Assembly: GCA_964372615.1 (NCBI GenBank)
Contig: CAYJTX010000001.1
Coordinates: 1-40,151, forward strand
Reading direction: 5' to 3'
Origin: an uncultured Bacteriovoracaceae bacterium
GTDB lineage: Bacteria; Bdellovibrionota; UBA1018
Length of the DNA stretch: 40,151 bases
Position numbers and translations under genes: made by a program. Shown piece by piece: positions 4,593 to 40,150 of the stretch; position 1 is the first letter of the stretch; every line of letters begins with the position of its first letter. The notes under the pieces were generated by a model that did not search any database, had not been told where the DNA came from, and was given only the letters and a program-made list of their open reading frames with translations.

Positions 4593-5210
4593 TCATGACT
4601 GCGGACCCAGTCGCTTCACGAACCCGAAATACTCGTCCGGGACGGAGTCAAAATCCATGGTCGCTTCGCAGCCCGAGCACTTGGGCTTCGGAACCAAAGC
4701 CTCGTCTCCCGCGAACTGCACTTCCTGAGGGAGCAGCAGGACCACTTCGGTCTTCGCGCAGGCCTTGCAGAAGTAGGGGGCCTGAAACGACAGGACCTGG
4801 TGCCCCTTGCCGAACATATTCGGAATCATGTTGGCCTGCTCGACGATCCGCTCACAGACATTGACGTAAAAAACCGCCAGTGCCGGCGGAATCCGCTCCA
4901 GGAAAATGAGCCACTCCCGCACGCCACAGGAGTTCATGTGCGAGATGTGACCCAGATCGAACTCCACGAACTGGAGCGTCAGCGACTGGCGCGCGATCAG
5001 ATCCAGAATGCTCTGGAAGTTGATGTCCTCGTCGAACGTGCCCTGGGGACGCACGACCGCTCCGCCCCTGACGAACTCCACTTCGATCTTCAGCTTACCG
5101 AAATCGGCAAGTAAGGTCGGGGCTGGACACATAGGGTCTTCATCCTCATCGGTAGGCGCTAACGGAACCCTGAGAAACGCGGCGACAGCCCCGAGGATCT
5201 CCTTTCCCAT
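4593..5210 (-). CDS. STAS-domain (anti-sigma-antagonist-like) protein with C-terminal CxxC...CxxC zinc-ribbon-like tail
   Basis: The STAS-like core is GKLKIEVEFVRGGAVVRPQGTFDEDINFQSILDLI...LQFVEFDLGHISHMNSCGVREWLIF. It is followed by FCKACAK...CSGCE. The TGA stop at 4595-4593 is in frame with the downstream PAS ORF. Confidence 0.6.
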   Translation of the reverse strand: MGKEILGAVAAFLRVPLAPTDEDEDPMCPAPTLLADFGKLKIEVEFVRGGAVVRPQGTFDEDINFQSILDLIARQSLTLQFVEFDLGHISHMNSCGVREWLIFLERIPPALAVFYVNVCERIVEQANMIPNMFGKGHQVLSFQAPYFCKACAKTEVVLLLPQEVQFAGDEALVPKPKCSGCEATMDFDSVPDEYFGFVKRLGPQS

Positions 5211-5240
5211 TTTTCATCACCCTGCTAACCCTAGGAAATT

Positions 5241-5774
5241 ATGAAGCGACTGTTCTGGGTCGACCTGGAAATGACCGGTCTCGACGAAGTTCGCGACTCC
5301 ATTCTGGAAGTAGCCGCCATCGTGACGGATCTCGACTTCAAGCCTGTTGAGACCTTTCATCAGATTGTGTTCCAGCCCCTGAGCGTCCTCGAGGCCATGA
5401 GCGCCTGGTGCAAGAAGACTCATGGCGAGAGCGGCCTCACGGCGGCCGTGGCGAAGGGCACTCCCCTCGCCGACGTCGAGCGCGAGCTGCTCCGGCTCCT
5501 CGAGCGGCATTTCGATCCCAAGGAGAGGGTCGTGCTCTGCGGAAACTCGGTGGGCAACGACCGGCGCTTCATCGACCGGTACCTCCCCGAGACTTCGAAG
5601 CGCCTGCACTACCGGCTCATCGACGTGAGCTCGTTCAAGGAGGTCTTCCGCGAAAAGTACGGCGTGAAATTCGAGAAAAAGAGCACCCATCGCGCGGTCG
5701 ACGATATTCTGGAGTCGATTCGAGAGCTCCAGCACTACCTTTCCTTCGTGCACCCGCCCGAGAAGCCGAAGTGA
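5241..5774 (+). CDS. orn: Oligoribonuclease (DEDDh 3'-5' exoribonuclease)
   Basis: 177 aa. The N-terminus is LFWVDLEMTGLD (Exo I motif). It also has ...LCGNSVGNDRRFI... (Exo II) and ...THRAVDDILESIRELQHY (Exo III with His), the typical Orn layout and size. Confidence 0.9.
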   Translation: MKRLFWVDLEMTGLDEVRDSILEVAAIVTDLDFKPVETFHQIVFQPLSVLEAMSAWCKKTHGESGLTAAVAKGTPLADVERELLRLLERHFDPKERVVLCGNSVGNDRRFIDRYLPETSKRLHYRLIDVSSFKEVFREKYGVKFEKKSTHRAVDDILESIRELQHYLSFVHPPEKPK

Positions 5775-6187
5775 CCCGCCCCAGCTTCGAGCAGATCTAC
5801 CTCAGGCTCGCTCTCTCGCTGGCCGAGCGCTCGACCTGCAAGCGGCTACGCGTCGGTACCGTCATCACTTCCACCGATTTCCGGAAGGTTTTGGCCGTGG
5901 GATACAACGGCAACGCCACCGGCCTGCCGAATGCCTGCGACCGCGAGGAAGTCGGCAACTGCGGGTGCCTGCATTCCGAGGAGAACGCGGTCATCAACTG
6001 CGACGCGCCTCGGGATACCCGGAAGATCGTCTTCGTCACCCACCTGCCCTGCGTCGCGTGCGCCAAGCGTCTCATCAACCTGGGAAACGTCGAGGCCGTT
6101 TACTACGCGAACGACTACCGGATCAGGGATTCGGTCGATTTACTGCGATCCGTTGGGATCCGCGTCGAGCTGCGGGTACCGGAATGA
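5771..6187 (+). CDS. dCMP deaminase / CMP-dCMP zinc-binding deaminase (ComEB-type)
   Basis: The GTG start at 5771 overlaps the orn stop (GTGA). Zinc motifs CLHSEENAV (H-x-E) and HLPCVACAK (PCxxC) are present. The N-terminal part of tracked ORF 5408..6187 is Arg/Pro-rich read-through of the orn region, not coding in this frame. Confidence 0.85.
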   Translation: MTRPSFEQIYLRLALSLAERSTCKRLRVGTVITSTDFRKVLAVGYNGNATGLPNACDREEVGNCGCLHSEENAVINCDAPRDTRKIVFVTHLPCVACAKRLINLGNVEAVYYANDYRIRDSVDLLRSVGIRVELRVPE

Positions 6188-9018
6188 AACGCGCGTGCAG
6201 GGCGGCCGCTCTCGCCGCGCTCGCCGCCGGAATCGGCCTCGGGTGCATGAGCGCCCCGAAGCCGCCGGGAGCGGAAAGCGGAGCCCAGGCCCGCCCCGGA
6301 GTCCTGAGCCGCGAGACCGCGTCCCGTCGGGCTCGCCAGATCGGCAGGCTCAGCTACTCCCTCTGGTTCGGGCTGGATCAGGCGGGAGACCCGTCGCAGG
6401 CGAACTTCACGGGCCGTGCGGCCATTCGCTTTGAGCTGAGGGAAAAGGCCGCATCCGTCGGCGACGAGCTCGCGATCGACTTCGAAGGCGGCGAGATCCG
6501 CGCTCTCACGATCAACGGAGCGGCTCAGCCCGAGGCGTTCGTGCGGGAGCGGTACGACGGCCACCTGCTGAAGCTGCGGCTCGCGGAGCTCGCCCAGGGG
6601 GCGAACCGTCTGGAGATCGCTTACACCCACCCCTTCAGTACGACCGGCAACGGCCTCCATCGCGCCCAGGATCCGGTCGACGCCGCCACCTACGTCTACA
6701 CGAACCTGGAGCCGTTCAGCGCGAACAAGGTCTTTCCGTGCTTCGACCAGCCCGACCTCAAGGCCTCGTACGAGGTCACGGTCGAGGCGCCCCGCGACTG
6801 GATCGTCATCGCCAACACCCAGGAGCGCGAGGTGACGACCCTCAACGGCCGGTCGAGCTGGCAGTTCCCGCCGTCGCCGTCGTTCAGCACCTACGTCTTC
6901 GCACTCATGGCCGGCCCGTTCGCCGTCTGGGAGAGCGAGGCCGACGGGATTCCGCTGCGGCTGCTGGCGCGAGAATCCCTGCGGAAGCACGTCGATTACC
7001 GGGAGTGGTTCGACGTCACGCGCGCCGGCCTCGCGTTCTACAATCTCCAGTTCGGCTATCCCTATCCGTACTCGAAGTACGACCAGATCCTGGTGCCCGA
7101 CTTCAACGCGGGCGCCATGGAAAACGTGGGGGCAGTGACCTTCTCCGAGCGCTTCATCTTCCGCTCGCGTGTCACCGAGGACAAGAGACTCGGCCGCGCG
7201 CTCACGATCCTCCACGAGATGGCGCATATGTGGTTCGGGAATCTGGTGACGATGCGCTGGTGGAACGGCCTCTGGCTCAACGAGAGCTTCGCCACCTACA
7301 TCGCCAGCTGGGCGGCGTCCAAGACGCTCGCAGGCAAGGAGTCCCGCGTCTGGCAGACGTTTTTCGGAACGAAACAGTGGGCTTACTGGGAAGACCAGCT
7401 CGTGACGACCCATCCGATCGAGGTCTCGGTGCCCGACACGGATCACGCGTTCTCCAATTTCGACGGCGTGACCTACGGGAAGGGCGCGGCGAGCCTCAAG
7501 CAGCTGGTCTACCTGCTGGGAGAAGACTCGTTCCGCGAGGGCATGCAGCGGTACTTCGAGCGCTTCGCCCACCGGAACACGACGCTCGCGGATTTCATGA
7601 ACACGCTCGCGGAAGCCTCAGACCGGAAGCTCGGCGACTGGCAGAAGGCCTGGCTGCAGACCCCGGGCGTGACGGGGCTGCAGGCCGAATGGAGCTGTGG
7701 CGACGGGCCGCGAGGCGCGCGCGTCGTCGAGCGTTTCGTCCTCCGTCAGAGACCGCCCCCGGGCGGCGACCTCCGCGCCCATCGGGCGAAGGTCGCGCTT
7801 TACCGCTCGCGGGGCTCCCGCCTCGAGATCCTCGACCCGAAGGCGGACGTGATCGAAGTCGAGTACGCTCGAGCCGAGAATTCGGTTGTCTCCGCCCTCG
7901 GACGACCGTGTCCCGACTTCGTCTTCCCGAATCACGAGGACCACGACTACGCGAAGGTCTCCCTCGACGAACGCTCCCTGAGAACGGCGAAGGCGGGCCT
8001 CTCGCGCGTGGCCGATCCACTGGCTCGCCAGATGGTCTGGCACACGCTCTGGGAGATGGTCGTCGACGCGGAGCTTCGGATCCAGGATTACATCGACATC
8101 GTGATCGCGCAGGCCGGAGAAGAGAAGGACACGCAGGTTGTCTCCCGGATTCTCAGGAACGCCGTCTCGGGAGCAAGCCAGATCCTGCCCGCCGGGCCCC
8201 GGCGGGCCGAGGCGTTCGCGCGGCTGGAGACCTTCGCCCGCGGAAGGCTCACGCGCGCGTCGGCGGGCAGCGACCTCCAGCTCGTCTGGTTCGGGGCGTT
8301 TCTCTCGTCCGTAGAATCCGAGGGCGGCCGTCGCTTCGCGCACGACCTCCTGGAAGGAAAGGGGCGCCTCTCGGGCCTCAAGATCGAGCAGGATCGAAGG
8401 TGGGAGCTACTCAAGGCGCTCTCGCGAGCGGGAGGCCCGGAAATCTTCGAGCTCATCGTGCGGGAGATCCGGCGCGACCCGTCCGACCTGGGTAAGAAGG
8501 AATCTATTTCAGCCGAAGCCCGCGCGCCCGACCCGGTCATCAAGAAGAAGTGGCTCGAGCGCATCTTCAAGAGGCCTCCGGGCGACGCCTTCAAGAACTC
8601 CGACCTGGAAGAGGCGATGGCTGGCTTCAATATTCGCAATCAGGAAGCCTTTACTGAAGAGCTGGCGAAGGCCTACTTCGCCGAGCTTCCCGCGCTCGCG
8701 GCGCGCCCCGGCGAGGACGAGGAGTACCTCTCGGAGCTCGCCTCGGACATGTTCCCGCGTCTGTGCTCGGAAGACACCGTTCGGCAGGCGACCGCCCTGC
8801 TGGCTTCCCACTCAGCGCTGCCGGCGCCAGTTGTGAAGGCCCTCAAGATTTCCCGGCAGGAGGAAGAGCGCTGCGTGAAGGGCCGGCGCCTCGCGATGGG
8901 CGCAGCTCCCGCGCCAGCCGCGCCTATTGCGCCAGCCGCGCCTATTGCGCCCGCTGCGCCTATTGCGCCGATCCCCAAGCCCTCGGCGGCCCCGGCCGCC
9001 TCCTGGAATCCCTGGTGA
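6184..9018 (+). CDS. pepN: M1-family aminopeptidase N, lipoprotein form
   Basis: The ATG at 6184 overlaps the deaminase stop (ATGA). The signal peptide plus lipobox is MKRACRAAALAALAAGIGLGC. The GAMEN exopeptidase motif (NAGAMENVGAVTF) and the zincin HEMAHMWFGNLVTMRWWNGLWLNESFA (HExxH-18-E) are present. A long helical C-terminal domain ends in a Pro/Ala repeat tail. Confidence 0.9.
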   Translation: MKRACRAAALAALAAGIGLGCMSAPKPPGAESGAQARPGVLSRETASRRARQIGRLSYSLWFGLDQAGDPSQANFTGRAAIRFELREKAASVGDELAIDFEGGEIRALTINGAAQPEAFVRERYDGHLLKLRLAELAQGANRLEIAYTHPFSTTGNGLHRAQDPVDAATYVYTNLEPFSANKVFPCFDQPDLKASYEVTVEAPRDWIVIANTQEREVTTLNGRSSWQFPPSPSFSTYVFALMAGPFAVWESEADGIPLRLLARESLRKHVDYREWFDVTRAGLAFYNLQFGYPYPYSKYDQILVPDFNAGAMENVGAVTFSERFIFRSRVTEDKRLGRALTILHEMAHMWFGNLVTMRWWNGLWLNESFATYIASWAASKTLAGKESRVWQTFFGTKQWAYWEDQLVTTHPIEVSVPDTDHAFSNFDGVTYGKGAASLKQLVYLLGEDSFREGMQRYFERFAHRNTTLADFMNTLAEASDRKLGDWQKAWLQTPGVTGLQAEWSCGDGPRGARVVERFVLRQRPPPGGDLRAHRAKVALYRSRGSRLEILDPKADVIEVEYARAENSVVSALGRPCPDFVFPNHEDHDYAKVSLDERSLRTAKAGLSRVADPLARQMVWHTLWEMVVDAELRIQDYIDIVIAQAGEEKDTQVVSRILRNAVSGASQILPAGPRRAEAFARLETFARGRLTRASAGSDLQLVWFGAFLSSVESEGGRRFAHDLLEGKGRLSGLKIEQDRRWELLKALSRAGGPEIFELIVREIRRDPSDLGKKESISAEARAPDPVIKKKWLERIFKRPPGDAFKNSDLEEAMAGFNIRNQEAFTEELAKAYFAELPALAARPGEDEEYLSELASDMFPRLCSEDTVRQATALLASHSALPAPVVKALKISRQEEERCVKGRRLAMGAAPAPAAPIAPAAPIAPAAPIAPIPKPSAAPAASWNPW
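8911..8970 (+). repeat. 18-bp tandem repeat (about 3.3 copies) inside the pepN 3' end, encoding (APAAPI)n
   Basis: The units are GCGCCAGCCGCGCCTATT x2, then GCGCCCGCTGCGCCTATT, then a partial GCGCCG. They translate to APAAPIAPAAPIAPAAPIAP. Confidence 0.85.
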
Positions 9019-9106: not shown

Positions 9107-9919
9107 CTACGTCCCATTCCTGAGACGCGGGTCACCCAGACAGAGCGCGCCTGCTGCGAGCGCTCCCGTTGCGAGCGCTCCCGCCTCAGAAATTCGGAGT
9201 GCGCGGCGAACGCCGAATCGACTGATTTCTGCCCGCTCCGCCAGTAGGGTCGCCGACCGCCAACCCTGCTTCCAAGCGAGCCGGATGAAGAGCCGTCGAG
9301 TGGGAGTTCTCCGGGTGATCTGCGAAACATCGGACTCTGTCGCGGCAGCGGCGGCTCGCGCGATCCACTCCAGAGGCACGGTCGACGTGCATCGCTCGGG
9401 TTCAGGCCGCGGGAACGGCGAACCCTTCGACGATACGCTCGGATCGCCGCTGACGTAGGCGTGATGCCTCTCGCGAAACCTCTCCCCTTCCTTCTCAAGC
9501 GCACGCGCAAGCCGGATCGCTGGAACCCACGGATCGACGATCGCGCCCACGACGCCTCGATGCGTGGACCACGGCCACTCGAGCGGATCCCCGCAGAGCC
9601 GAGCTCGGCAGGGGTTCAGCACCACGTAGCGAACCTGCCGGGCGAGATGAAGGGGATCCGGGATACCCTGCGGTTTCCCCACTTCCCAGATGCCTGAGTC
9701 GTCTCCCCTGCACGACATCGCCAGCATTCGGGTCAACCTGGAAGACTGATCTGCCGGCTCCGTCGTCGAGCAGATGAGATGGAGATGGTTGGGCATCAGG
9801 ACTGCCGCGAGCACCTCGGGAAAATTTACCCGCAGGCGCTTCCAGGCCCATCGACAGGCTTGAACGTCCTGGTATGGGCTCAGCCCGTGTCTTGCTCTTG
9901 CGACGAAGTGAAAATACAT
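9107..9919 (-). CDS. REP-associated tyrosine transposase (RAYT; IS200/IS605-like Y1 HUH transposase) with C-terminal DnaA-C-like helix-turn-helix extension
   Basis: The HUH motif is LMPNHLHLI and the catalytic-Tyr motif is VRYVVLNPCRARL. The C-terminal segment SQITRRTPTRRLFIRLAWKQGWRSATLLAERAEISRFGVRRAL resembles the DnaA domain IV HTH. No IS ends or tnpB are seen. A REP doublet lies 30-110 bp upstream of the start. Confidence 0.8.
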   Translation of the reverse strand: MYFHFVARARHGLSPYQDVQACRWAWKRLRVNFPEVLAAVLMPNHLHLICSTTEPADQSSRLTRMLAMSCRGDDSGIWEVGKPQGIPDPLHLARQVRYVVLNPCRARLCGDPLEWPWSTHRGVVGAIVDPWVPAIRLARALEKEGERFRERHHAYVSGDPSVSSKGSPFPRPEPERCTSTVPLEWIARAAAAATESDVSQITRRTPTRRLFIRLAWKQGWRSATLLAERAEISRFGVRRALRISEAGALATGALAAGALCLGDPRLRNGT

Positions 9920-9947
9920 GGGCCGACCTCAAGCAAGCCCCATGCTC

Positions 9948-10029
9948 GAAGCTGAAGGCCACATTCCGTGCACTTGAGAGGGCACCCAGCCCTCGGTCGG
10001 GTCCGGAGTCCACGCAATGTGGACTTGGC
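9948..10029. repeat. REPIN-like doublet, copy L1 (two 21-nt palindromes 51 bp apart)
   Basis: The palindromes are AAGGCCAC-attcc-GTGCACTT (9955-9975) and gAGTCCAC-gcaat-GTGGACTT (10006-10026). The 82-bp unit is about 83% identical (68/82, hand alignment) to 39441-39522. An extra outer inverted repeat GGTCCG/CGGACC lies at 10000-10005 and 10032-10037. Confidence 0.85.
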
Positions 10030-10117
10030 TTCGGACCAACCAACCCGCCAGTGCTGACCGGGCGGCACCTCCACAGCTACGCGGTACAGGCACTTCCGCA
10101 AGAAGCTCTCCTGCACC

Positions 10118-10684
10118 GTGCCCGCGGCGCAGGACGGCGGAGTGGATGCATCAGTACCGGGGGAGTGGGGCCCCGATTGGCTCCCCGGTTCGGCGAGTCC
10201 TTTCGAAAACCTGGGCGCCCTCTTCAAGGCCGGCCAGGGCACGGTACCCGACCTGCCTGACCTCTTCGGCGCAACCACCGGCCGCTGCTTTCACCCCGAC
10301 GAGCCCGCGCGGGCTCTGAACGGGCTGCTCCTCGGCTGGGTGGACAACCACTCCGACCCCCTCGACCCCCGCCCCTTCTTCCTCAAGGGCGCCGCAATCT
10401 CGTACGGAAACGGTGTCGACTGCGGCCCCGCCTGCTTCGACCGGCTGAGCTCCGAGCTCCGGTACTGGATCCCGATCACCCTGGCGGGCCTTCGCGGCGT
10501 CGGAAGGGCGTCGACCGTCGAGCACGGCTCGCGAGTCATCGGAATCCACGAGGAGGACTTCAGCGAGAAGATCTTCGTGCGCAAGCACGCGGGCTATCTC
10601 ATCACCGTGTCCAACGTCGTGCGGGAGAGCGGCCTGGCCGCCCAAGGCGTGCGCTGCTTCTTCTTCCAGCGGGTGCTCCCGTAG
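10118..10684 (+). CDS. Hypothetical protein
   Basis: Very strong GC3 bias across the ORF. No recognisable motif and no signal peptide. The start (GTG 10118) is uncertain. The 202-aa antisense ORF is judged a shadow. Confidence 0.55.
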   Translation: MPAAQDGGVDASVPGEWGPDWLPGSASPFENLGALFKAGQGTVPDLPDLFGATTGRCFHPDEPARALNGLLLGWVDNHSDPLDPRPFFLKGAAISYGNGVDCGPACFDRLSSELRYWIPITLAGLRGVGRASTVEHGSRVIGIHEEDFSEKIFVRKHAGYLITVSNVVRESGLAAQGVRCFFFQRVLP

Positions 10685-17484: not shown

Positions 17485-18816
17485 CTACGGTTCGCCGATT
17501 CTCATTTTAGTTCGAGGCACGCGATACTCGGAGCTCTTCCCTCCGAGCGCCCGCTTCAGCGCGAGCTCGAGTCGGATCGTGCGCCCCTTGCGCGTCCATT
17601 CGGGCTTGAGGGGTAGGCGCCCGAGCGCGACGCGAACTCTGTCGGCCTCCACGCTGATGAGCTCCCGAGGGACCTCGCCCACGAAGCGGTCGGGGTAGGA
17701 GAGAAAACTCCTGGACTCGTACCTGAGCCAGACCGAAGTCGTAACGAGCGACGAGACCTTCGCCCTGTCGGAGAACTCCGCCACGAGGCCCTCCCCCGAG
17801 CCGCGGATCCCCTGGAAGTCGAGGGCATTGGATTCTTCCGGGCGGATCGCGGTCAGAACGGCGAACGTCGTCGTTTCGCCTTCGGTCGCGGCTCGAAGGT
17901 CGGTCCAGAGATCGCCTCCGAGCTCAAGCACCGGAGTGTCGCCCTCCAACGAAAGGGAGAGCCCGATTCCAGCGAACTCGGTCGGAGGACGGCTCGCCTC
18001 CCATCGGATGCGGGCGAGGCGTTCGATCGTGCCGGCATAGCTGTGGTAGGTGTCGCCGACCGAGGAGCCCGGCGCGAGAATCGAGCGCGCACCCGTGCGG
18101 CTCTCCCAGGCATGGCGGGAGAGCGGGAACTCCGTGCGCTGCGCCAGCTCCGCCAGATCGACTCGAAGCCACTGCCGGGCAGGCGGAAGCGTCGGCTGCC
18201 CTCGAATGATGCGGAGCTCGCCGGGCCGCCCAGGGGCGCCCCATGCTCCGTGAGCTCCACTGCGCCCCGTGCGACCCTCCGTGCAGTAGAAACGCCTTTC
18301 GAAGCACTCTCGATCGCCCGTGGGTGATTCGCGGTCGCACTCCCTTCCCTCCCAGCTCGGCGTGGTACAGCGGCAACCGAACCCCCCGGGGGCTCCTCCG
18401 CCGGGCCCTCCTCCCCGGCCACCGGCGGCCATGACATGGATGTTCCGCATTTGCTCGATGCGCTCGTAGTAAACCGTGAGATCGCCCCCCCGGCCTCCGC
18501 TGCCGCCGTCGGCCCCCGCCCCTCCGTCGCCGCCGTCAGCGCCCTGGACACTGTAATTGGGGGTCGGCTGATAGCAGCCCGACGCGTCTTCTCCAGGCAT
18601 GCCGCCCGTGCCCGGGTTTCCGTCTGCGCCCGAGAGATTGAGGATCACCTGAGATCCGTCGGCCACGAGCGTGACGTCCTGCCCATCCCTTCCCGAGGAG
18701 CCGTCATCCCCGGACCAGCCATCCGCGCCCGGCGTCCCGAATCCCCATGCCGACTCGACATTCAAGAACGAGCTCGTCGCGGCGGCCAGCGTCAACAGTC
18801 CCAGCAGTGTCTTCAT
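17485..18816 (-). CDS. Exported Gly/Asp-rich (collagen-like GxxGxx) protein with unknown C-terminal domain
   Basis: The ATG at 18816 is preceded by GAGGGG. The signal peptide is MKTLLGLLTLAAATSSFLNVESAWG. Gly-rich stretches follow: GADGWSGDDGSSGRDG, GADGNPGTGGMPG, GADGGDGGAGADGGSGGRGG and AAGGRGGGPGGGAPGG. A ~250-aa non-repetitive C-terminal region comes next. Confidence 0.6.
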   Translation of the reverse strand: MKTLLGLLTLAAATSSFLNVESAWGFGTPGADGWSGDDGSSGRDGQDVTLVADGSQVILNLSGADGNPGTGGMPGEDASGCYQPTPNYSVQGADGGDGGAGADGGSGGRGGDLTVYYERIEQMRNIHVMAAGGRGGGPGGGAPGGFGCRCTTPSWEGRECDRESPTGDRECFERRFYCTEGRTGRSGAHGAWGAPGRPGELRIIRGQPTLPPARQWLRVDLAELAQRTEFPLSRHAWESRTGARSILAPGSSVGDTYHSYAGTIERLARIRWEASRPPTEFAGIGLSLSLEGDTPVLELGGDLWTDLRAATEGETTTFAVLTAIRPEESNALDFQGIRGSGEGLVAEFSDRAKVSSLVTTSVWLRYESRSFLSYPDRFVGEVPRELISVEADRVRVALGRLPLKPEWTRKGRTIRLELALKRALGGKSSEYRVPRTKMRIGEP

Positions 18817-18935
18817 GCACCCCTCGCTTAATTTCCAGACGGTTACTGCAATCGGCGTTCCTTGGAAAGGCCGGTTAAACAGCCTTCTTCGGGGCCGATC
18901 CGACTCCACGGCAGCTTGCGTGACACCCTTGGGGA

Positions 18936-19721
18936 CTATCCCCTGAGCCAGAGTGAAACCGGGCAGTGGTCCGAACCCCTGACCTCCGGATGGATCGCCG
19001 CCGCCGCGAGCCGATCGCGCGAGTCGCCGTCGGCGAAGAAGTAGTCCAGGCGCCACCCGATGTTCTTCTCGCGCACGCCGGGCCGGTAGCTCCACCAGGT
19101 GTAGTTCTCGGGGCCGGGATCGAAGGCGCGGAACGTGTCGACGTAGCCGCCTCCGACGTACTCATCCAGCCAGGCCCGCTCCTCGGGCAGAAAGCCCGCG
19201 TTGTCGACGTTGGTCTTCGGGTTTCTGAGGTCGATCTCCTTATGGGCGATGTTGAAGTCGCCGCACACGAGCACGGTCTTGCCCCTCGAGCGCAGGTCGT
19301 CGCAGAGCCGGCGCATCGCGCGGCAGAATTTCACCTTGAAGCCGAGTCGCGCGTGGTCGCGCTGGCTGTTCGGAAAGTAGGTGTTCACGAGTGTAAAGGT
19401 GGAGAACTCGGTCACGAGCACCCGGCCCTCGGCGTCGAACTCCTCGATGCCGATCCCCTCGCGCACCTCGAGGGGCTCTTCGCGGCTGAAGGTCGCAACG
19501 CCGCTGTAACCGGGTTTCTGAGCCGAGTACCACGAAGCGTGGAAGCCCCCCGGGTGCCTAAGCTCGGGCGCGACCTGCCCTGGAAAGGCCTTGATCTCCT
19601 GTACGCAGACGACGTCTGCCCCGGAAGCGGCGAACCAGTCGAGGAACCCGCCCCGATGCGCCGCCCGAATCCCGTTCACGTTCCAGGAAACCAGCTGAAT
19701 ACCCTTGGATTTCTTGGCCAT
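18936..19721 (-). CDS. xth: Exodeoxyribonuclease III (AP endonuclease, EEP fold)
   Basis: The N-terminus is MAKKSKGIQLVSWNVNGIRAA. It also has ...DVVCVQEIK... and ...SDHCPV at the C-terminus. The ATG at 19721 is preceded by GGGAG. Confidence 0.9.
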   Translation of the reverse strand: MAKKSKGIQLVSWNVNGIRAAHRGGFLDWFAASGADVVCVQEIKAFPGQVAPELRHPGGFHASWYSAQKPGYSGVATFSREEPLEVREGIGIEEFDAEGRVLVTEFSTFTLVNTYFPNSQRDHARLGFKVKFCRAMRRLCDDLRSRGKTVLVCGDFNIAHKEIDLRNPKTNVDNAGFLPEERAWLDEYVGGGYVDTFRAFDPGPENYTWWSYRPGVREKNIGWRLDYFFADGDSRDRLAAAAIHPEVRGSDHCPVSLWLRG

Positions 19722-30073: not shown

Positions 30074-30328
30074 ATGATCCACAAAAGAACCGTGTCGTAC
30101 TCGGGAAAAACTTACGAGGTGAGAAGGCTCTACAGCTCGGGCGTTGGGGAACAGTTCTCAGCGCATTTCCGTGACGGCTCGGGCGCCGAGAAGACGCTTC
30201 ATCTCACGGATGCGTCCGAGAAGGGTTCGCCGCTCGAAGCCGGTCTATTCGAGGCCTGCCGGAGCGCCTTTGCGAACTTCAACTCACTGAACAAGACTTT
30301 AAACCACCCAGGCCAGGATTCGGGATAG
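30074..30328 (+). CDS. Small hypothetical protein (84 aa)
   Basis: The ATG at 30074 has GGGAGA 7 nt upstream. GC3 is high. It overlaps the 3' end of the convergent RCC1 ORF by 130 bp. The third codon positions of the two frames coincide, so GC3 cannot discriminate between them. Confidence 0.4.
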   Translation: MIHKRTVSYSGKTYEVRRLYSSGVGEQFSAHFRDGSGAEKTLHLTDASEKGSPLEAGLFEACRSAFANFNSLNKTLNHPGQDSG

Positions 30329-31332
30329 ACCCGGACCTCGAGGGCGCCGGAGATGCCCTCGACGAGAGCAGGCTCCCCCAGCCCCGAACGGCAGGCGACC
30401 CGAGCCTCTACGACGGCGCAGGCCGATCGCGGGCCGATGTCGACTCCCTCGGATCCGATCCAGTCCAGACCGAGGCCGAAATCCTGCAGGCGGTTCGAGC
30501 CCCAGCAGCGAACCGCCGGCCCGCCCGCGGTTCGCATTCCGGCCGCGCACGACGCCCCATCGATCATTCGTAGCGAAGCTGTCTCACCGAGGCCCGTCGA
30601 TATTCTGAGAAAGCGGCCCGAATCGCCGCTCCCGCCTGAGACGAGTCCTCCTGTCGCGAGAGCCGGACGGCCCCAGCAGATGAGGTCGGGAGCCGCTCCG
30701 CTCCGAATCACGCATGTAGACGTTTCACCTGCGGACAGGTGCGCAAGCCCTTCGGCCTTCTTGTCCGCGACAGACCAGGGAATCTCGACCGCCACCGATA
30801 CCGGCTCGGTCGGAGACGTGCCGAGCACCGATCCCGTCACCTGCCACGAAAGGTTCTGGCCCCAGCACCAAACGCGCGAACCCGAGGCCGCACAGGCGTG
30901 CCTGGCTCCCACCGCGATGCGATCCACCGCCGCAAGTACCTGACCCTCTGATCCCAGCACCCGACGAGGCTCAGGCTGCGAGCCGGCATCGCCAGTGCCC
31001 AGGCGTCCATCATCCGCTGAGCCCCAGCACGCGACGGTCCCGTCGCCGAGAAGCGCGCATGCGTGGGTGTCTCCCACTCCGATCTCGGTCGCTCGATCCG
31101 GCAGCGCGATGGCGCGGGCGCTCCAGGCGGTTCCCGATTCCCCGCCCCAGTAGCTCAGGTCGTCGCCCCAGCAAAGTACCGTGCCGTCCAAACGCAGAGC
31201 GCAGGTTCGAAAACGGCCGGCGTCGAGCTCCGGTTGCAGAGAGTGAGCCGGGGCAGACTGCTGACCATCCTTGAAGTCCACAGTGTGTGGATTTGAGGCC
31301 CGACCAGAGGACTGCTCAGAGGCGAAGTCCAC
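30199..31332 (-). CDS. RCC1-repeat (beta-propeller) protein; both ends uncertain
   Basis: The blade signatures repeat: CALRLDGTVLCWGDD, HACALLGDGTVACWGSADDGRLG, HACAASGSRVWCWGQN, TCVIRSGAAPDLICWG, CAAGMRTAGGPAVRCWGSN. The tracked GTG start at 31332 lies inside a REP palindrome, and no signal peptide is present. Confidence 0.65.
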   Translation of the reverse strand: MDFASEQSSGRASNPHTVDFKDGQQSAPAHSLQPELDAGRFRTCALRLDGTVLCWGDDLSYWGGESGTAWSARAIALPDRATEIGVGDTHACALLGDGTVACWGSADDGRLGTGDAGSQPEPRRVLGSEGQVLAAVDRIAVGARHACAASGSRVWCWGQNLSWQVTGSVLGTSPTEPVSVAVEIPWSVADKKAEGLAHLSAGETSTCVIRSGAAPDLICWGRPALATGGLVSGGSGDSGRFLRISTGLGETASLRMIDGASCAAGMRTAGGPAVRCWGSNRLQDFGLGLDWIGSEGVDIGPRSACAVVEARVACRSGLGEPALVEGISGALEVRVYPESWPGWFKVLFSELKFAKALRQASNRPASSGEPFSDASVR

Positions 31333-31345
31333 GTAATGTGGACTT
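31274..31345. repeat. REPIN-like doublet, copy L2
   Basis: The palindromes are AAGTCCAC-agtgt-GTGGATTT (31274-31294) and AAGTCCAC-gtaat-GTGGACTT (31325-31345). They are offset by exactly 51 bp, as in L1 and L3. Confidence 0.85.
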
Positions 31346-31471
31346 CAGACGTTGGCTCTTACCTGGATCTGTTCTCAATCCAGCCGAGAGTAGACAGGTG
31401 AAGCGCGCCTCCGCCGCGATATGCGCCGATCTTTTAGGAGTACTCAGGAGGCCTTCCAGGCCCGGCCCCAC

Positions 31472-39160: not shown

Positions 39161-39440
39161 GGGGCCTCCCTGAAAATTCTGAGTGCGATGCCACCCTGAA
39201 TTGCAGGAGCGATGCCTAGAAGACGCTCCAGGTGACGCGAACGGCGTCACCATATATCCTTGTAATCAAATGACTTTACTGGACACATCGACCCGATGGA
39301 CTCGAAAACGGTGTTCGAAGGCACGGACCGGTCAACTACCGGAAACTGTCCACCGGCTAGAAGTTGGCGTGAAGACGACGCTCGAGTACTCGACGCCCGA
39401 AGGGACGAAGAAGATGGGCACGGCCCGCGGCAGGTGCCAA

Positions 39441-39522
39441 GAAGCCGAAATCCACAATCCGTGCACTTGACGGGGTACCGGGGCCTCGGTCGGATCCGAA
39501 GTCCACGCATCGTGGACTTGGC
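39441..39522. repeat. REPIN-like doublet, copy L3
   Basis: The palindromes are AAATCCAC-aatcc-GTGCACTT (39448-39468) and AAGTCCAC-gcatc-GTGGACTT (39499-39519), 51 bp apart. The unit is about 83% identical to L1 over 82 bp. It ends 3 nt from the stop codon of the gene at 39525. Confidence 0.85.
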
Positions 39523-39524
39523 GA

Positions 39525-39959
39525 TCAGGCTTTCAAGTTCATTGCGATGTCGTGACGGGCTTTCGCGGCATTCGAAAGGCTCCGGAAGCTCTGCGACTGC
39601 AGCTGCACCGCCTGCTGAAGAGCCAGGAACTGCATGTTCATCGCGGCCATCCGCTGCAGAGCCAGCTCGGCGGTTTCGACATCGACGATGCCTTCGCTGA
39701 GCGCCGCGCGGGCCGGCGCAAGAAGATTGCTCTCGTGGATCAGCAGGCTGGTGAAGTCGTCGAGAAACCGGCGCTCCGACCCGGTCGCGTTCGCGCGCAG
39801 GGCCTCGGCCTCCGCGAAGAGCGCCTTGGACTGATTGTCGAACTCGGCCAGATCCGCGGTCAAGCTCTGGGTCTGGACCCTTCCGAGCGGGGGGCGCTCA
39901 AGGCCGGCCATGACATGTACTTTCGAGACGACGCTGGCCTGGGTGGGCTTGGAAGAGAT
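39525..39959 (-). CDS. Hypothetical helical, Gln-rich protein
   Basis: The ORF is open to 40061. I prefer the GTG at 39959, which overlaps the stop of the upstream partial ORF (GTGA), matching the coupling style seen elsewhere in the window. ATG 39911 is an alternative start. Confidence 0.45.
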   Translation of the reverse strand: MSSKPTQASVVSKVHVMAGLERPPLGRVQTQSLTADLAEFDNQSKALFAEAEALRANATGSERRFLDDFTSLLIHESNLLAPARAALSEGIVDVETAELALQRMAAMNMQFLALQQAVQLQSQSFRSLSNAAKARHDIAMNLKA

Positions 39960-40150
39960 CACAAGAACTCCGATCCGAAAACGCCGCTCGGCCGTGAACG
40001 AAGCGACGGCTGAGCCCGTTCCGGAAGCCTCGGCCAGCGTACTTCCGTGGCTGGGTCCCACGCTATTTCGTCGAGCTCCAGCTTCTCGCGAAGCAGGACG
40101 AGCCTGCGCACGACGGCGGGCGCGAGCTTCTCGTCGGACTTACCGCGGTA
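39959..40150 (-). CDS. 3' end of an unknown gene running off the window
   Basis: The frame is open from the window edge (YRGKSDEKLAPAVVRRLVLLREKLELDEIA...) with good GC3, and the TGA stop is at 39961-39959. It is absent from the ORF track because its start lies outside the window. Confidence 0.4.
   Translation of the reverse strand, partial: YRGKSDEKLAPAVVRRLVLLREKLELDEIAWDPATEVRWPRLPERAQPSLRSRPSGVFGSEFL

Follow-up and report, generated by a model that had tools for sequence, protein, structure and literature searches.

The locus described here raises the question of whether a lone gene, encoding a protein that resembles the REP-associated tyrosine transposases (RAYTs), belongs together with the short palindrome doublets found beside its start codon and elsewhere in the same DNA. 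The gene lies in a 40,151-bp contig of an uncultured Bacteriovoracaceae bacterium (CAYJTX010000001.1, assembly GCA_964372615.1, Bdellovibrionota), called the window below, which is the entire NCBI contig and has 65% G+C. No other domesticated transposase that lives with non-autonomous repeats of its own is as well known as the RAYTs with their repetitive extragenic palindromes (REPs), and to our knowledge nearly everything known about them comes from groups 2 and 3 of the enterobacteria and pseudomonads. The initial annotation had read the locus as encoding a RAYT that has a DnaA-like tail and is accompanied by its cognate palindrome doublets, and this reading was largely right. We consider it probable (roughly 0.6) that the locus is a RAYT/REP-type system, in which a single-copy, domesticated endonuclease of the Y1 HUH (histidine-hydrophobic-histidine) type works with its own family of short palindromic repeats. 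The basis of this reading seen here is the fold, the catalytic residues, the lineage-specific flanking palindromes and some dispersal of the repeats. What the present analysis adds is a register of 51-52 bp, independent of sequence, in the flanking palindromes and arrays throughout the protein family.

Nuclease domain and family of the RAYT-like protein

9107..9919, minus strand: RAYT-like protein gene including the stop codon, from the open reading frame (ORF) and its translation (270 aa, starting MYFHFVARA)
9530..9919, minus strand: N-terminal HUH/Y1 nuclease domain, residues 1 to about 130, with H45, H47, W78 and R97-Y98-x3-N102-P103, from the alignment and Foldseek
9410..9463, minus strand: inter-domain motif H153-x-Y155-V-S-G-D159-P160...G166-T-x-x-P170, from the 31-member alignment and the AlphaFold2 (AF2) model
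9110..9388, minus strand: C-terminal helical domain, residues about 178-270, with the predicted fold of DnaA domain IV and ending in LCLGD-x-RL, from the model and Foldseek

The Y1 HUH signature (MPNHLHLI) and the Tyr motif (RYVVLNP) noted in the initial annotation were both present in the 270-aa protein encoded by the ORF at 9107-9919. In an alignment of 31 family members, H45-L-H47, R97-Y98 and N102-P103 were invariant, and W78 was likewise invariant. The family profile, compared with the PDB, placed H45/H47, W78 and Y98 on H59/H61, W94 and Y115 of E. coli TnpA-REP (4er8, E 6.9e-9), whereas ISDra2 TnpA matched at E 0.38. The AF2 model of the protein had a predicted local distance difference test score (pLDDT) of 94, and Foldseek with this model returned 4er8_A (E 6.7e-5, TMt 0.59) and no other match below 1e-3. 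With 4er8 as the best match by both profile and fold, and a match to the NCBIfam model NF047646 REP_Tyr_transpos at E 1.3e-10, the RAYT-type identity proposed earlier held. The NF047646 score of 41.3 bits was below the 80-bit cutoff. No Pfam family matched the protein, Y1_Tnp being absent at E<=1, and in the family Y1_Tnp matched 2 of the 31 members at an E of only about 0.2. Because the NF047646 cutoff was missed and Pfam Y1_Tnp gave no match, the protein is, by sequence, classed as a divergent relative of the RAYTs and not as an equivalog.

More than 430 full-length homologs were found at 40-52% identity, mostly unnamed and a few labelled RayT by JGI, from metagenome-assembled genomes (MAGs) of Deltaproteobacteria, Nannocystaceae, Polyangiaceae and Bdellovibrionota. 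When the profile was run against 1.84 billion representatives, at least 580 family clusters at 50% identity (E<=1e-30) came up, from Myxococcota, Bdellovibrionota and 'Deltaproteobacteria' MAGs. The exact 270-aa sequence had no record of its own. The window contained one copy of the gene, with no second copy and no tnpB-sized ORF near it. In the family, the clusters at 90% identity held 1-6 sequences on 1-6 contigs, and two paralogs on contig JACCDG011772562.1 (L183 and L187), with genes about 46 kb apart, were only about 50% identical. Since the 90% clusters are small and the same-contig paralogs so dissimilar, the gene appears to behave as a low-copy gene. No conserved gene neighbourhood was found among four related loci (L121, L123, L124 and L207) and the window.

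Palindrome doublets in the window

9947..10033, plus strand: repeat copy 1, between divergent genes (the RAYT-like start codon and a plus-strand gene at 10118), made up of an imperfect palindrome (9955-9975), a G+C-rich central palindrome (9978-9994), a further palindrome (10006-10026) and the outer inverted repeat CGAAGC/GCTTCG
31272..31347, plus strand: repeat copy 2, with palindromes at 31274-31294 and 31325-31345, between an RCC1-repeat gene (minus strand) and an AhpC/TSA-domain gene (plus strand, start 31421)
39441..39522, plus strand: repeat copy 3, with palindromes at 39448-39468 and 39499-39519

The palindrome AGTCCAC-N5-GTGGACT, with up to 2 mismatches, occurred at six sites in the window (9956/10007, 31275/31326 and 39449/39500), the last two pairs being the further doublets that had been reported. 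All six sites had one orientation, and the members of each doublet were exactly 51 bp apart in 3 of 3 pairs. In shuffled sequences 0.10 sites were expected and none of 100 shuffles reached six. The 21-nt form AAGTCCAC-N5-GTGGACTT, with up to 3 mismatches, recovered the identical six sites and no others (0.05 expected). Relative to the start codon at 9919, the first palindrome begins 36 bp away and the second ends 107 bp away. The position and the 51-bp register of the two 21-nt palindromes near the start thus stood as first described, but the gene-proximal one is imperfect, with 6 of 8 stem pairs (AAGGCCAC..GTGCACTT in copy 1 and AAATCCAC..GTGCACTT in copy 3) and the identical two mismatched positions in both copies.

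Copies 1 and 3 were 83% identical over 82 bp (9948-10029 and 39441-39522), and copy 2 had the palindromes alone in common with copy 1. The similarity to copy 3 had been said to reach up to the RAYT ATG; outside these 82 bp it was weak and not recovered by BLAST. Each of the three copies lies either between genes or at the end of one. Copy 3 ends 5 bp from the stop codon (39525-39527) of a minus-strand gene at 39525-40061, and about 290 bp upstream of a minus-strand gene starting at 39161. No repeat was found between the RAYT-like stop codon and the aminopeptidase gene that follows it, which agrees with the one-sided flank noted before.

Single-stranded folding gave z scores of -4.1 (plus strand) and -5.0 (minus strand) for copy 1, and of -2.9 and -4.05 for copy 2. 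One long hairpin was the predicted minimum-energy fold for both strands of copy 1, the plus strand of copy 2 and the minus strand of copy 3. When the paired palindromes were compared over 27 positions in the direct and the inverted sense, 16/18, 19/19 and 20/18 positions were identical, a near tie. The RAYT/REP (REPIN) architecture proposed at first was upheld for the gene-linked palindrome doublets, which recur throughout the family, while the REPIN-like inverted orientation was ambiguous in the window.

Several further observations concern these repeats. The only 5' in-frame starts of the RCC1-repeat ORF at 30199-31332 on the minus strand (a GTG at 31332 and a second one some 50 bp further inside the ORF) fall inside the copy 2 palindromes, and the Pfam-matched part of the ORF begins at about residue 36; copy 2 may have been inserted into or have replaced the true 5' end of this gene, or the gene start may be miscalled. 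The GC skew was negative across all 4-kb blocks of the window (-0.02 to -0.07), and the three repeat copies share one orientation, which is compatible with a replication strand bias, three copies being too few for more. The doublet pattern had no match in JGI metagenomes. Among the genome-contig matches listed, AGTCCAC-N5-GTGGACTT was common in Nostoc and other cyanobacteria (L003, L014, L016, L019, L030, L069, L074, L078 and others), sometimes in opposed pairs 33 bp apart. The 51-bp doublet was present in none of the listed cyanobacterial or unrelated loci with this match, and the cyanobacterial palindrome is probably an unrelated repeat family.

Repeats beside related genes mostly keep a spacing of 50-53 bp

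The comparison set consisted of 84 loci encoding family members, 79 of them non-redundant. In about 15 of the 84 loci, Tandem Repeats Finder placed, directly next to the gene, arrays whose period was 51 or 52 bp; they had 2 to 14 units, lay on one or both sides of the gene, and differed in sequence by lineage. A lag scan of the 500 bp next to the gene gave 24 strong self-similarities, 12 of them at lags of 51-52, against 1 of 884 control windows. Similar short hairpin pairs within 400 bp of the gene were spaced 50-53 bp apart in 51 of 55 cases, which came from 22 of the 79 non-redundant loci. Repeats of 50-315 bp, mostly direct, were common to the two flanks of the gene, upstream and downstream, in about 30 loci. 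The closest homolog (52% identity) had the same succession of hairpin, G+C-rich central palindrome and hairpin as copy 1, at a distance of 52 bp and in unrelated sequence. Adjoining palindromes were clearly direct in 14 related flanks, as tandem arrays, and clearly inverted in 12, as REPIN-like doublets, and the spacing of 50-53 bp was kept in both orientations. Because such arrays, lags, hairpin pairs and common flanks recur in the relatives, the association of gene and repeat and the spacing of the repeat are family traits and not an accident of the window. The family-wide link therefore supports a system of the RAYT/REP(IN) type.

In 7 of the 35 long related loci, the flank repeat also had copies at a distance from the gene, beyond about 650 bp. 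In one locus (L131), an array of 8 units at 9515-9929 was accompanied by one of 12.5 units at 18527-19168, which is 8.5 kb from the gene. Another (L144) had one array on each side of the gene, of 6 units (158-471) and 9.7 units (1387-1889), with a common orientation, and a third (L140) had 13.9 units at 1221-1928, up to the contig end. Since the last of these runs to the end of its contig, the arrays seem to break assemblies. The arrays of all three loci were head-to-tail, and each unit of 51-52 bp contained two different short hairpins. A CRISPR-like reading of the arrays was ruled out, as the segments between the palindromes were conserved from unit to unit.

Other layouts were seen as well. 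In L207 (48% identity), the region at 5110-5330 upstream of the gene had three roughly 31-bp units (GCATGCCCC..GAAGTTGTCG) followed by three inverted ones (CGTCAACTTCGG.CCCCCAT), forming a large composite palindrome in place of the 51-52 bp register. Near-perfect hairpins with 4-nt loops were found about 170 bp upstream of the gene in L153 (34-bp stem) and about 103 bp upstream in L171 (25-bp stem), and these look like fully symmetric REPIN-type elements. The k-mers GACACT and CGAAAC were enriched in subsets of the flanks only, which may reflect intergenic composition.

Linker and C-terminal domain

The nuclease domain is followed by a linker in which H153, Y155, D159, P160 and G166 were invariant, including a second invariant Tyr and His; in the AF2 model this motif is coil with high pLDDT. 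The LCLGDxRL motif at the C-terminus was also invariant. The C-terminal 99 residues, modelled alone, had a pLDDT of 92, and the best three Foldseek matches were DnaA DNA-binding domains (among them 3pvp and 1j1v, which are DnaA domain IV on the DnaA box), with TM-scores of 0.65-0.74 and coverage of the entire domain. Of the lower matches, only the full-length DnaA complex 8btg (0.54) had a TMq of 0.4 or more. At the sequence level, Bac_DnaA_C (Pfam PF08299) matched neither the 270-aa protein nor any of the 31 family members, HTH_23 matched 1 of 31 and HTH_29 4 of 31 (E about 0.004), the C-terminal profile had no match among PDB sequences, and hhalign against a hand-entered E. coli DnaA domain IV sequence gave a probability of 1.9%. 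The DnaA-domain-IV-like C-terminus of the initial annotation was thus borne out by the predicted fold but not by sequence, and the DnaA likeness of the modelled domain is one of fold only, without a sequence-level signal.

The C-terminal tail of L183 has diverged, with SWLLSDFGRF in place of LCLGDxRL. A rule based on the DnaA box was considered and rejected: the palindrome arm in the window (AAATCCACA / AAGTCCACA) resembles the TTATCCACA box, but GTCCAC and GTCCGC were not enriched in the flanks of the relatives (0.6-1.0x).

Comparison with described systems

Good descriptions exist of RAYTs that have REPs or REPINs (PMC3116915, PMC5581495). The system of E. coli TnpA-REP/RAYT with REP-BIME (REPtron; 4er8; Bertels group 2, Quentin subclass 2.2) resembles the present one in the HUH/Y1 fold, in the aligned HUH, Trp and catalytic Tyr within Y-x3-N-P, in a gene (a single copy in the window) with its own short flanking palindromes, and in repeats that are clustered and also located at dispersed extragenic sites. 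It differs in sequence (22% identity over 132 aligned columns) and lacks the roughly 100 added residues that form the DnaA-IV-like domain of the 270-aa protein. The repeats differ too: the palindromes here have neither a GTAG tag nor a bulge, they stand in a fixed register of 51-52 bp and in head-to-tail arrays, and the flanking repeats are mostly direct instead of inverted.

The nearest described relatives are the TnpA-REP proteins of subclass 2.1 (Quentin et al. 2018, PMC6006769), which are the counterparts of Bertels group 1 and of most TIRYT/TIRtron genes (Di Nocera et al. 2013, PMC3733652). These are long proteins with the motifs N-H-u-H (N-H-[VYF]-H), W[EQ] and Y[IV]xLNP, then a Ser motif D-P-x-x-[WY]-x-W-S-[ST], and with a C-terminal domain like Bac_DnaA_C, HTH_23 or HTH_28; they are prevalent in delta-proteobacteria and low in copy number, and the authors report no REP-like sequences near the genes (PMC6006769). 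The family consensus found here (PNHxHLI, W-[QE]-P, RYVaLNP, DPLEWxWST) agrees with these motifs as given in Table 1 of PMC6006769, with the central HUH residue mostly L, and hhalign of the family against a YIELNP-type Y1 protein of a Rhodospirillum plasmid gave a probability of 98% (E 7.6e-14). The Y1 motifs and the delta-proteobacterial prevalence are common to both, and so, apparently, are the DnaA-C-like C-terminal domain (here by predicted fold) and the low copy number. The extra DNA-binding domain, which had been put forward as a novelty, has already been described for subclass 2.1 and the TIRYTs (PMC6006769, PMC3733652). The present family differs from subclass 2.1 in missing the Pfam Y1_Tnp and Bac_DnaA_C thresholds, in length (270-300 aa against a median of 238), in its own invariant HxYVSGDP linker and LCLGDxRL tail, and in flanks that carry palindrome doublets or arrays with a period of 51-52 bp, mostly direct. 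TIRYT genes have terminal inverted repeats, often GGGGWSAS (PMC3733652); no motif of this kind was among the enriched k-mers of the relatives' flanks.

The REPINs of Pseudomonas (Bertels & Rainey 2011, PMC3116915) are also built of two short palindromes and a spacer that can fold into one long hairpin; they are extragenic and tied to a single-copy RAYT, and the inverted palindromes in 12 related flanks are like them. They form populations of hundreds of copies, whereas three doublets were seen here in 40 kb, and the ambiguous palindrome orientation in the window and the direct tandem arrays in 14 related flanks are unlike REPINs. No description of the present clade or of the 51-52 bp register was found in the literature searched, with most subscription journals outside the search.

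Proposed mechanism of the RAYT/REP-type system

By analogy with E. coli TnpA-REP and the TnpA of IS200/IS605, the N-terminal domain would recognise the palindromes once they have folded into hairpins on a single strand, as might happen at replication forks. On the same analogy it would cut beside the hairpins through a covalent 5'-phosphotyrosine link at Y98, with a metal held by H45/H47, and the strands would be rejoined; units of one or two palindromes could be copied or moved in this way, giving dispersed doublets and local tandem arrays. In vitro, TnpA-REP itself has been shown to cut and join single-stranded REPs in their folded form (PMC8266576). The most likely part played by the DnaA-IV-like domain is to hold the enzyme to duplex DNA, either at the repeats or next to them. 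Because the spacing is strict and independent of both the sequence and the palindrome orientation, it suggests that this domain binds duplex DNA in phase, and a distance of about 5 helical turns would fit protein copies bound to one face of the helix. The domain may also render the gene self-regulating, because the doublet sits between the gene and its upstream region.

With this reading, the overall picture of how a RAYT/REP system works is unchanged. The longer class of RAYT-like proteins with a DnaA-like tail, described as REP-less, would gain a concrete DNA substrate, and a role in phased binding to duplex DNA is suggested for the extra domain. A sizeable clade in Myxococcota and Bdellovibrionota lineages carries cognate palindromes at the fixed spacing of 51-52 bp, and the combination of the gene with this palindrome register provides a search rule for other genomes.

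Several results weigh against a RAYT/REP-type system. Only three doublets were present in 40 kb, 28 of the 35 long related loci had no distant copy within about 10 kb, and in L121 no other repeat copy was found in 20 kb around the gene; the repeats may thus be much rarer than classical REPs. No 5' tag of the GTAG or CGTC type was found in the family flanks, where many stems simply began with A-rich outer pairs, and k-mer enrichment in the flanks of the relatives revealed no motif common to the repeats of different lineages. For the nearest described subclass, 2.1, the published survey found no REPs (PMC6006769). Finally, the strict spacing of 51-52 bp is not obviously explained by a purely single-strand hairpin mechanism and points to the binding of duplex DNA.

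Alternative explanations

The same spacing is central to the first alternative, in which the protein has been domesticated as a DNA-binding regulator, or for an architectural task, and has ceased to move DNA. Its DnaA-IV-like domain would bind the palindromes as phased duplex operators, and the protein would control a few other loci besides its own promoter; the repeats would be its binding sites and not elements that move. The 8-N5-8 palindromes at 36-107 bp from the start codon, the C-terminal fold of a duplex-DNA-binding domain and the low density of dispersed copies in the relatives are what such a regulator would show, and so is a spacing of 50-53 bp kept across lineages with unrelated sequences, whatever the palindrome orientation. 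The invariant HUH, Tyr and N-P residues of the family, however, argue for retained catalysis, as judged from the alignment. Repeats also lie downstream of the gene, in arrays of up to 14 units, copy 3 is at the 3' end of a gene and far from any start codon, and the genes adjoining the three copies have no functional theme in common. DnaA domain IV binds as a monomer to an asymmetric 9-mer and not to a palindrome, with which palindromic sites are at odds, and a promoter scan of the doublet region, a weak test, found no promoter-like site. We regard this explanation as unlikely, yet it keeps some weight because the spacing suggests phased duplex binding by the DnaA-IV-like domain.

A more speculative and somewhat less likely proposal combines duplex binding with catalysis. 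Here the protein would form a phased oligomer along a duplex array of repeats, in the manner of the initiators DnaA or Rep on boxes or iterons, nick the extruded hairpins, and locally amplify units of 51-52 nt by a replicative (Rep-like) or mini-circle route. The proposal is made because the spacing is kept regardless of orientation and sequence, and because a domain with the DnaA-IV fold is fused to an HUH nuclease. If true, it would be an undescribed way to build and maintain REP arrays, and the array itself would be a functional structure of the chromosome.

It is very improbable that the repeat-gene-repeat unit is an autonomous IS200-like insertion sequence (IS), with the other doublets as its miniature derivatives. 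The IS200/IS605 TnpA proteins (IS608, ISDra2) would be like the present protein, by analogy, in HUH/Y1 chemistry and in the recognition of subterminal one-strand hairpins, and many relatives do have the gene between two like-oriented, hairpin-bearing repeats: the 50-315 bp repeats that bracket the gene in about 30 related loci recall the one-strand hairpin ends of this group. The G+C content at third codon positions (GC3) of the gene, which is below that of its neighbours, also fits an insertion sequence. The similarity to IS200/IS605 TnpA is nevertheless weak (E 0.38 by sequence, 0.09-0.4 by fold), the protein being nearer to TnpA-REP than to IS200 or ISDra2 TnpA on both counts, and the Tyr motif is Y-x3-N-P and not Y-x3-Q. 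The gene does not appear to be multicopy: the window has a single copy, the 90% clusters are small and same-contig paralogs are about 50% identical. The repeat lies on one side only in the window, the protein has an extra DNA-binding domain and there is no tnpB. The initial annotation had likewise pointed to the missing tnpB and the absence of IS termini, and the single gene copy, the one-sided repeat and the lack of a tnpB-sized neighbour are in accord with it.

It is hardly credible that the hairpins are of an ordinary intergenic kind, either terminators or RNA elements, which neighbour the gene by chance and have no functional tie to it. REP-like hairpins are common in intergenic DNA and copy 3, 5 bp from a stop codon, is terminator-like, but at least 22 independent loci repeat the layout beside a homologous gene, with varying sequence and constant spacing, and control DNA nearly lacks it. 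No T-run follows the window hairpins, and the window contained no Rfam family or tRNA, so that the hairpins match no described RNA element.

Neighbouring genes

In the collection searched, no other protein exceeded 85% identity to the elongation factor G of the window, whose named near-relatives were Bdellovibrionia and Oligoflexia MAGs. The GC3 of the RAYT-like gene (9110-9919) was 0.70, compared with 0.82-0.92 in the neighbouring genes, which means weak codon adaptation, low expression or foreign origin. The gene for an M1 aminopeptidase N at 5965-9018 adjoins the 3' end of the RAYT-like gene and ends at 9018. Within it, the APAAPI repeats of the enzyme's C-terminal tail are encoded at 8905-8965 by an 18-bp unit (GCGCCAGCCGCGCCTATT) in three tandem copies.

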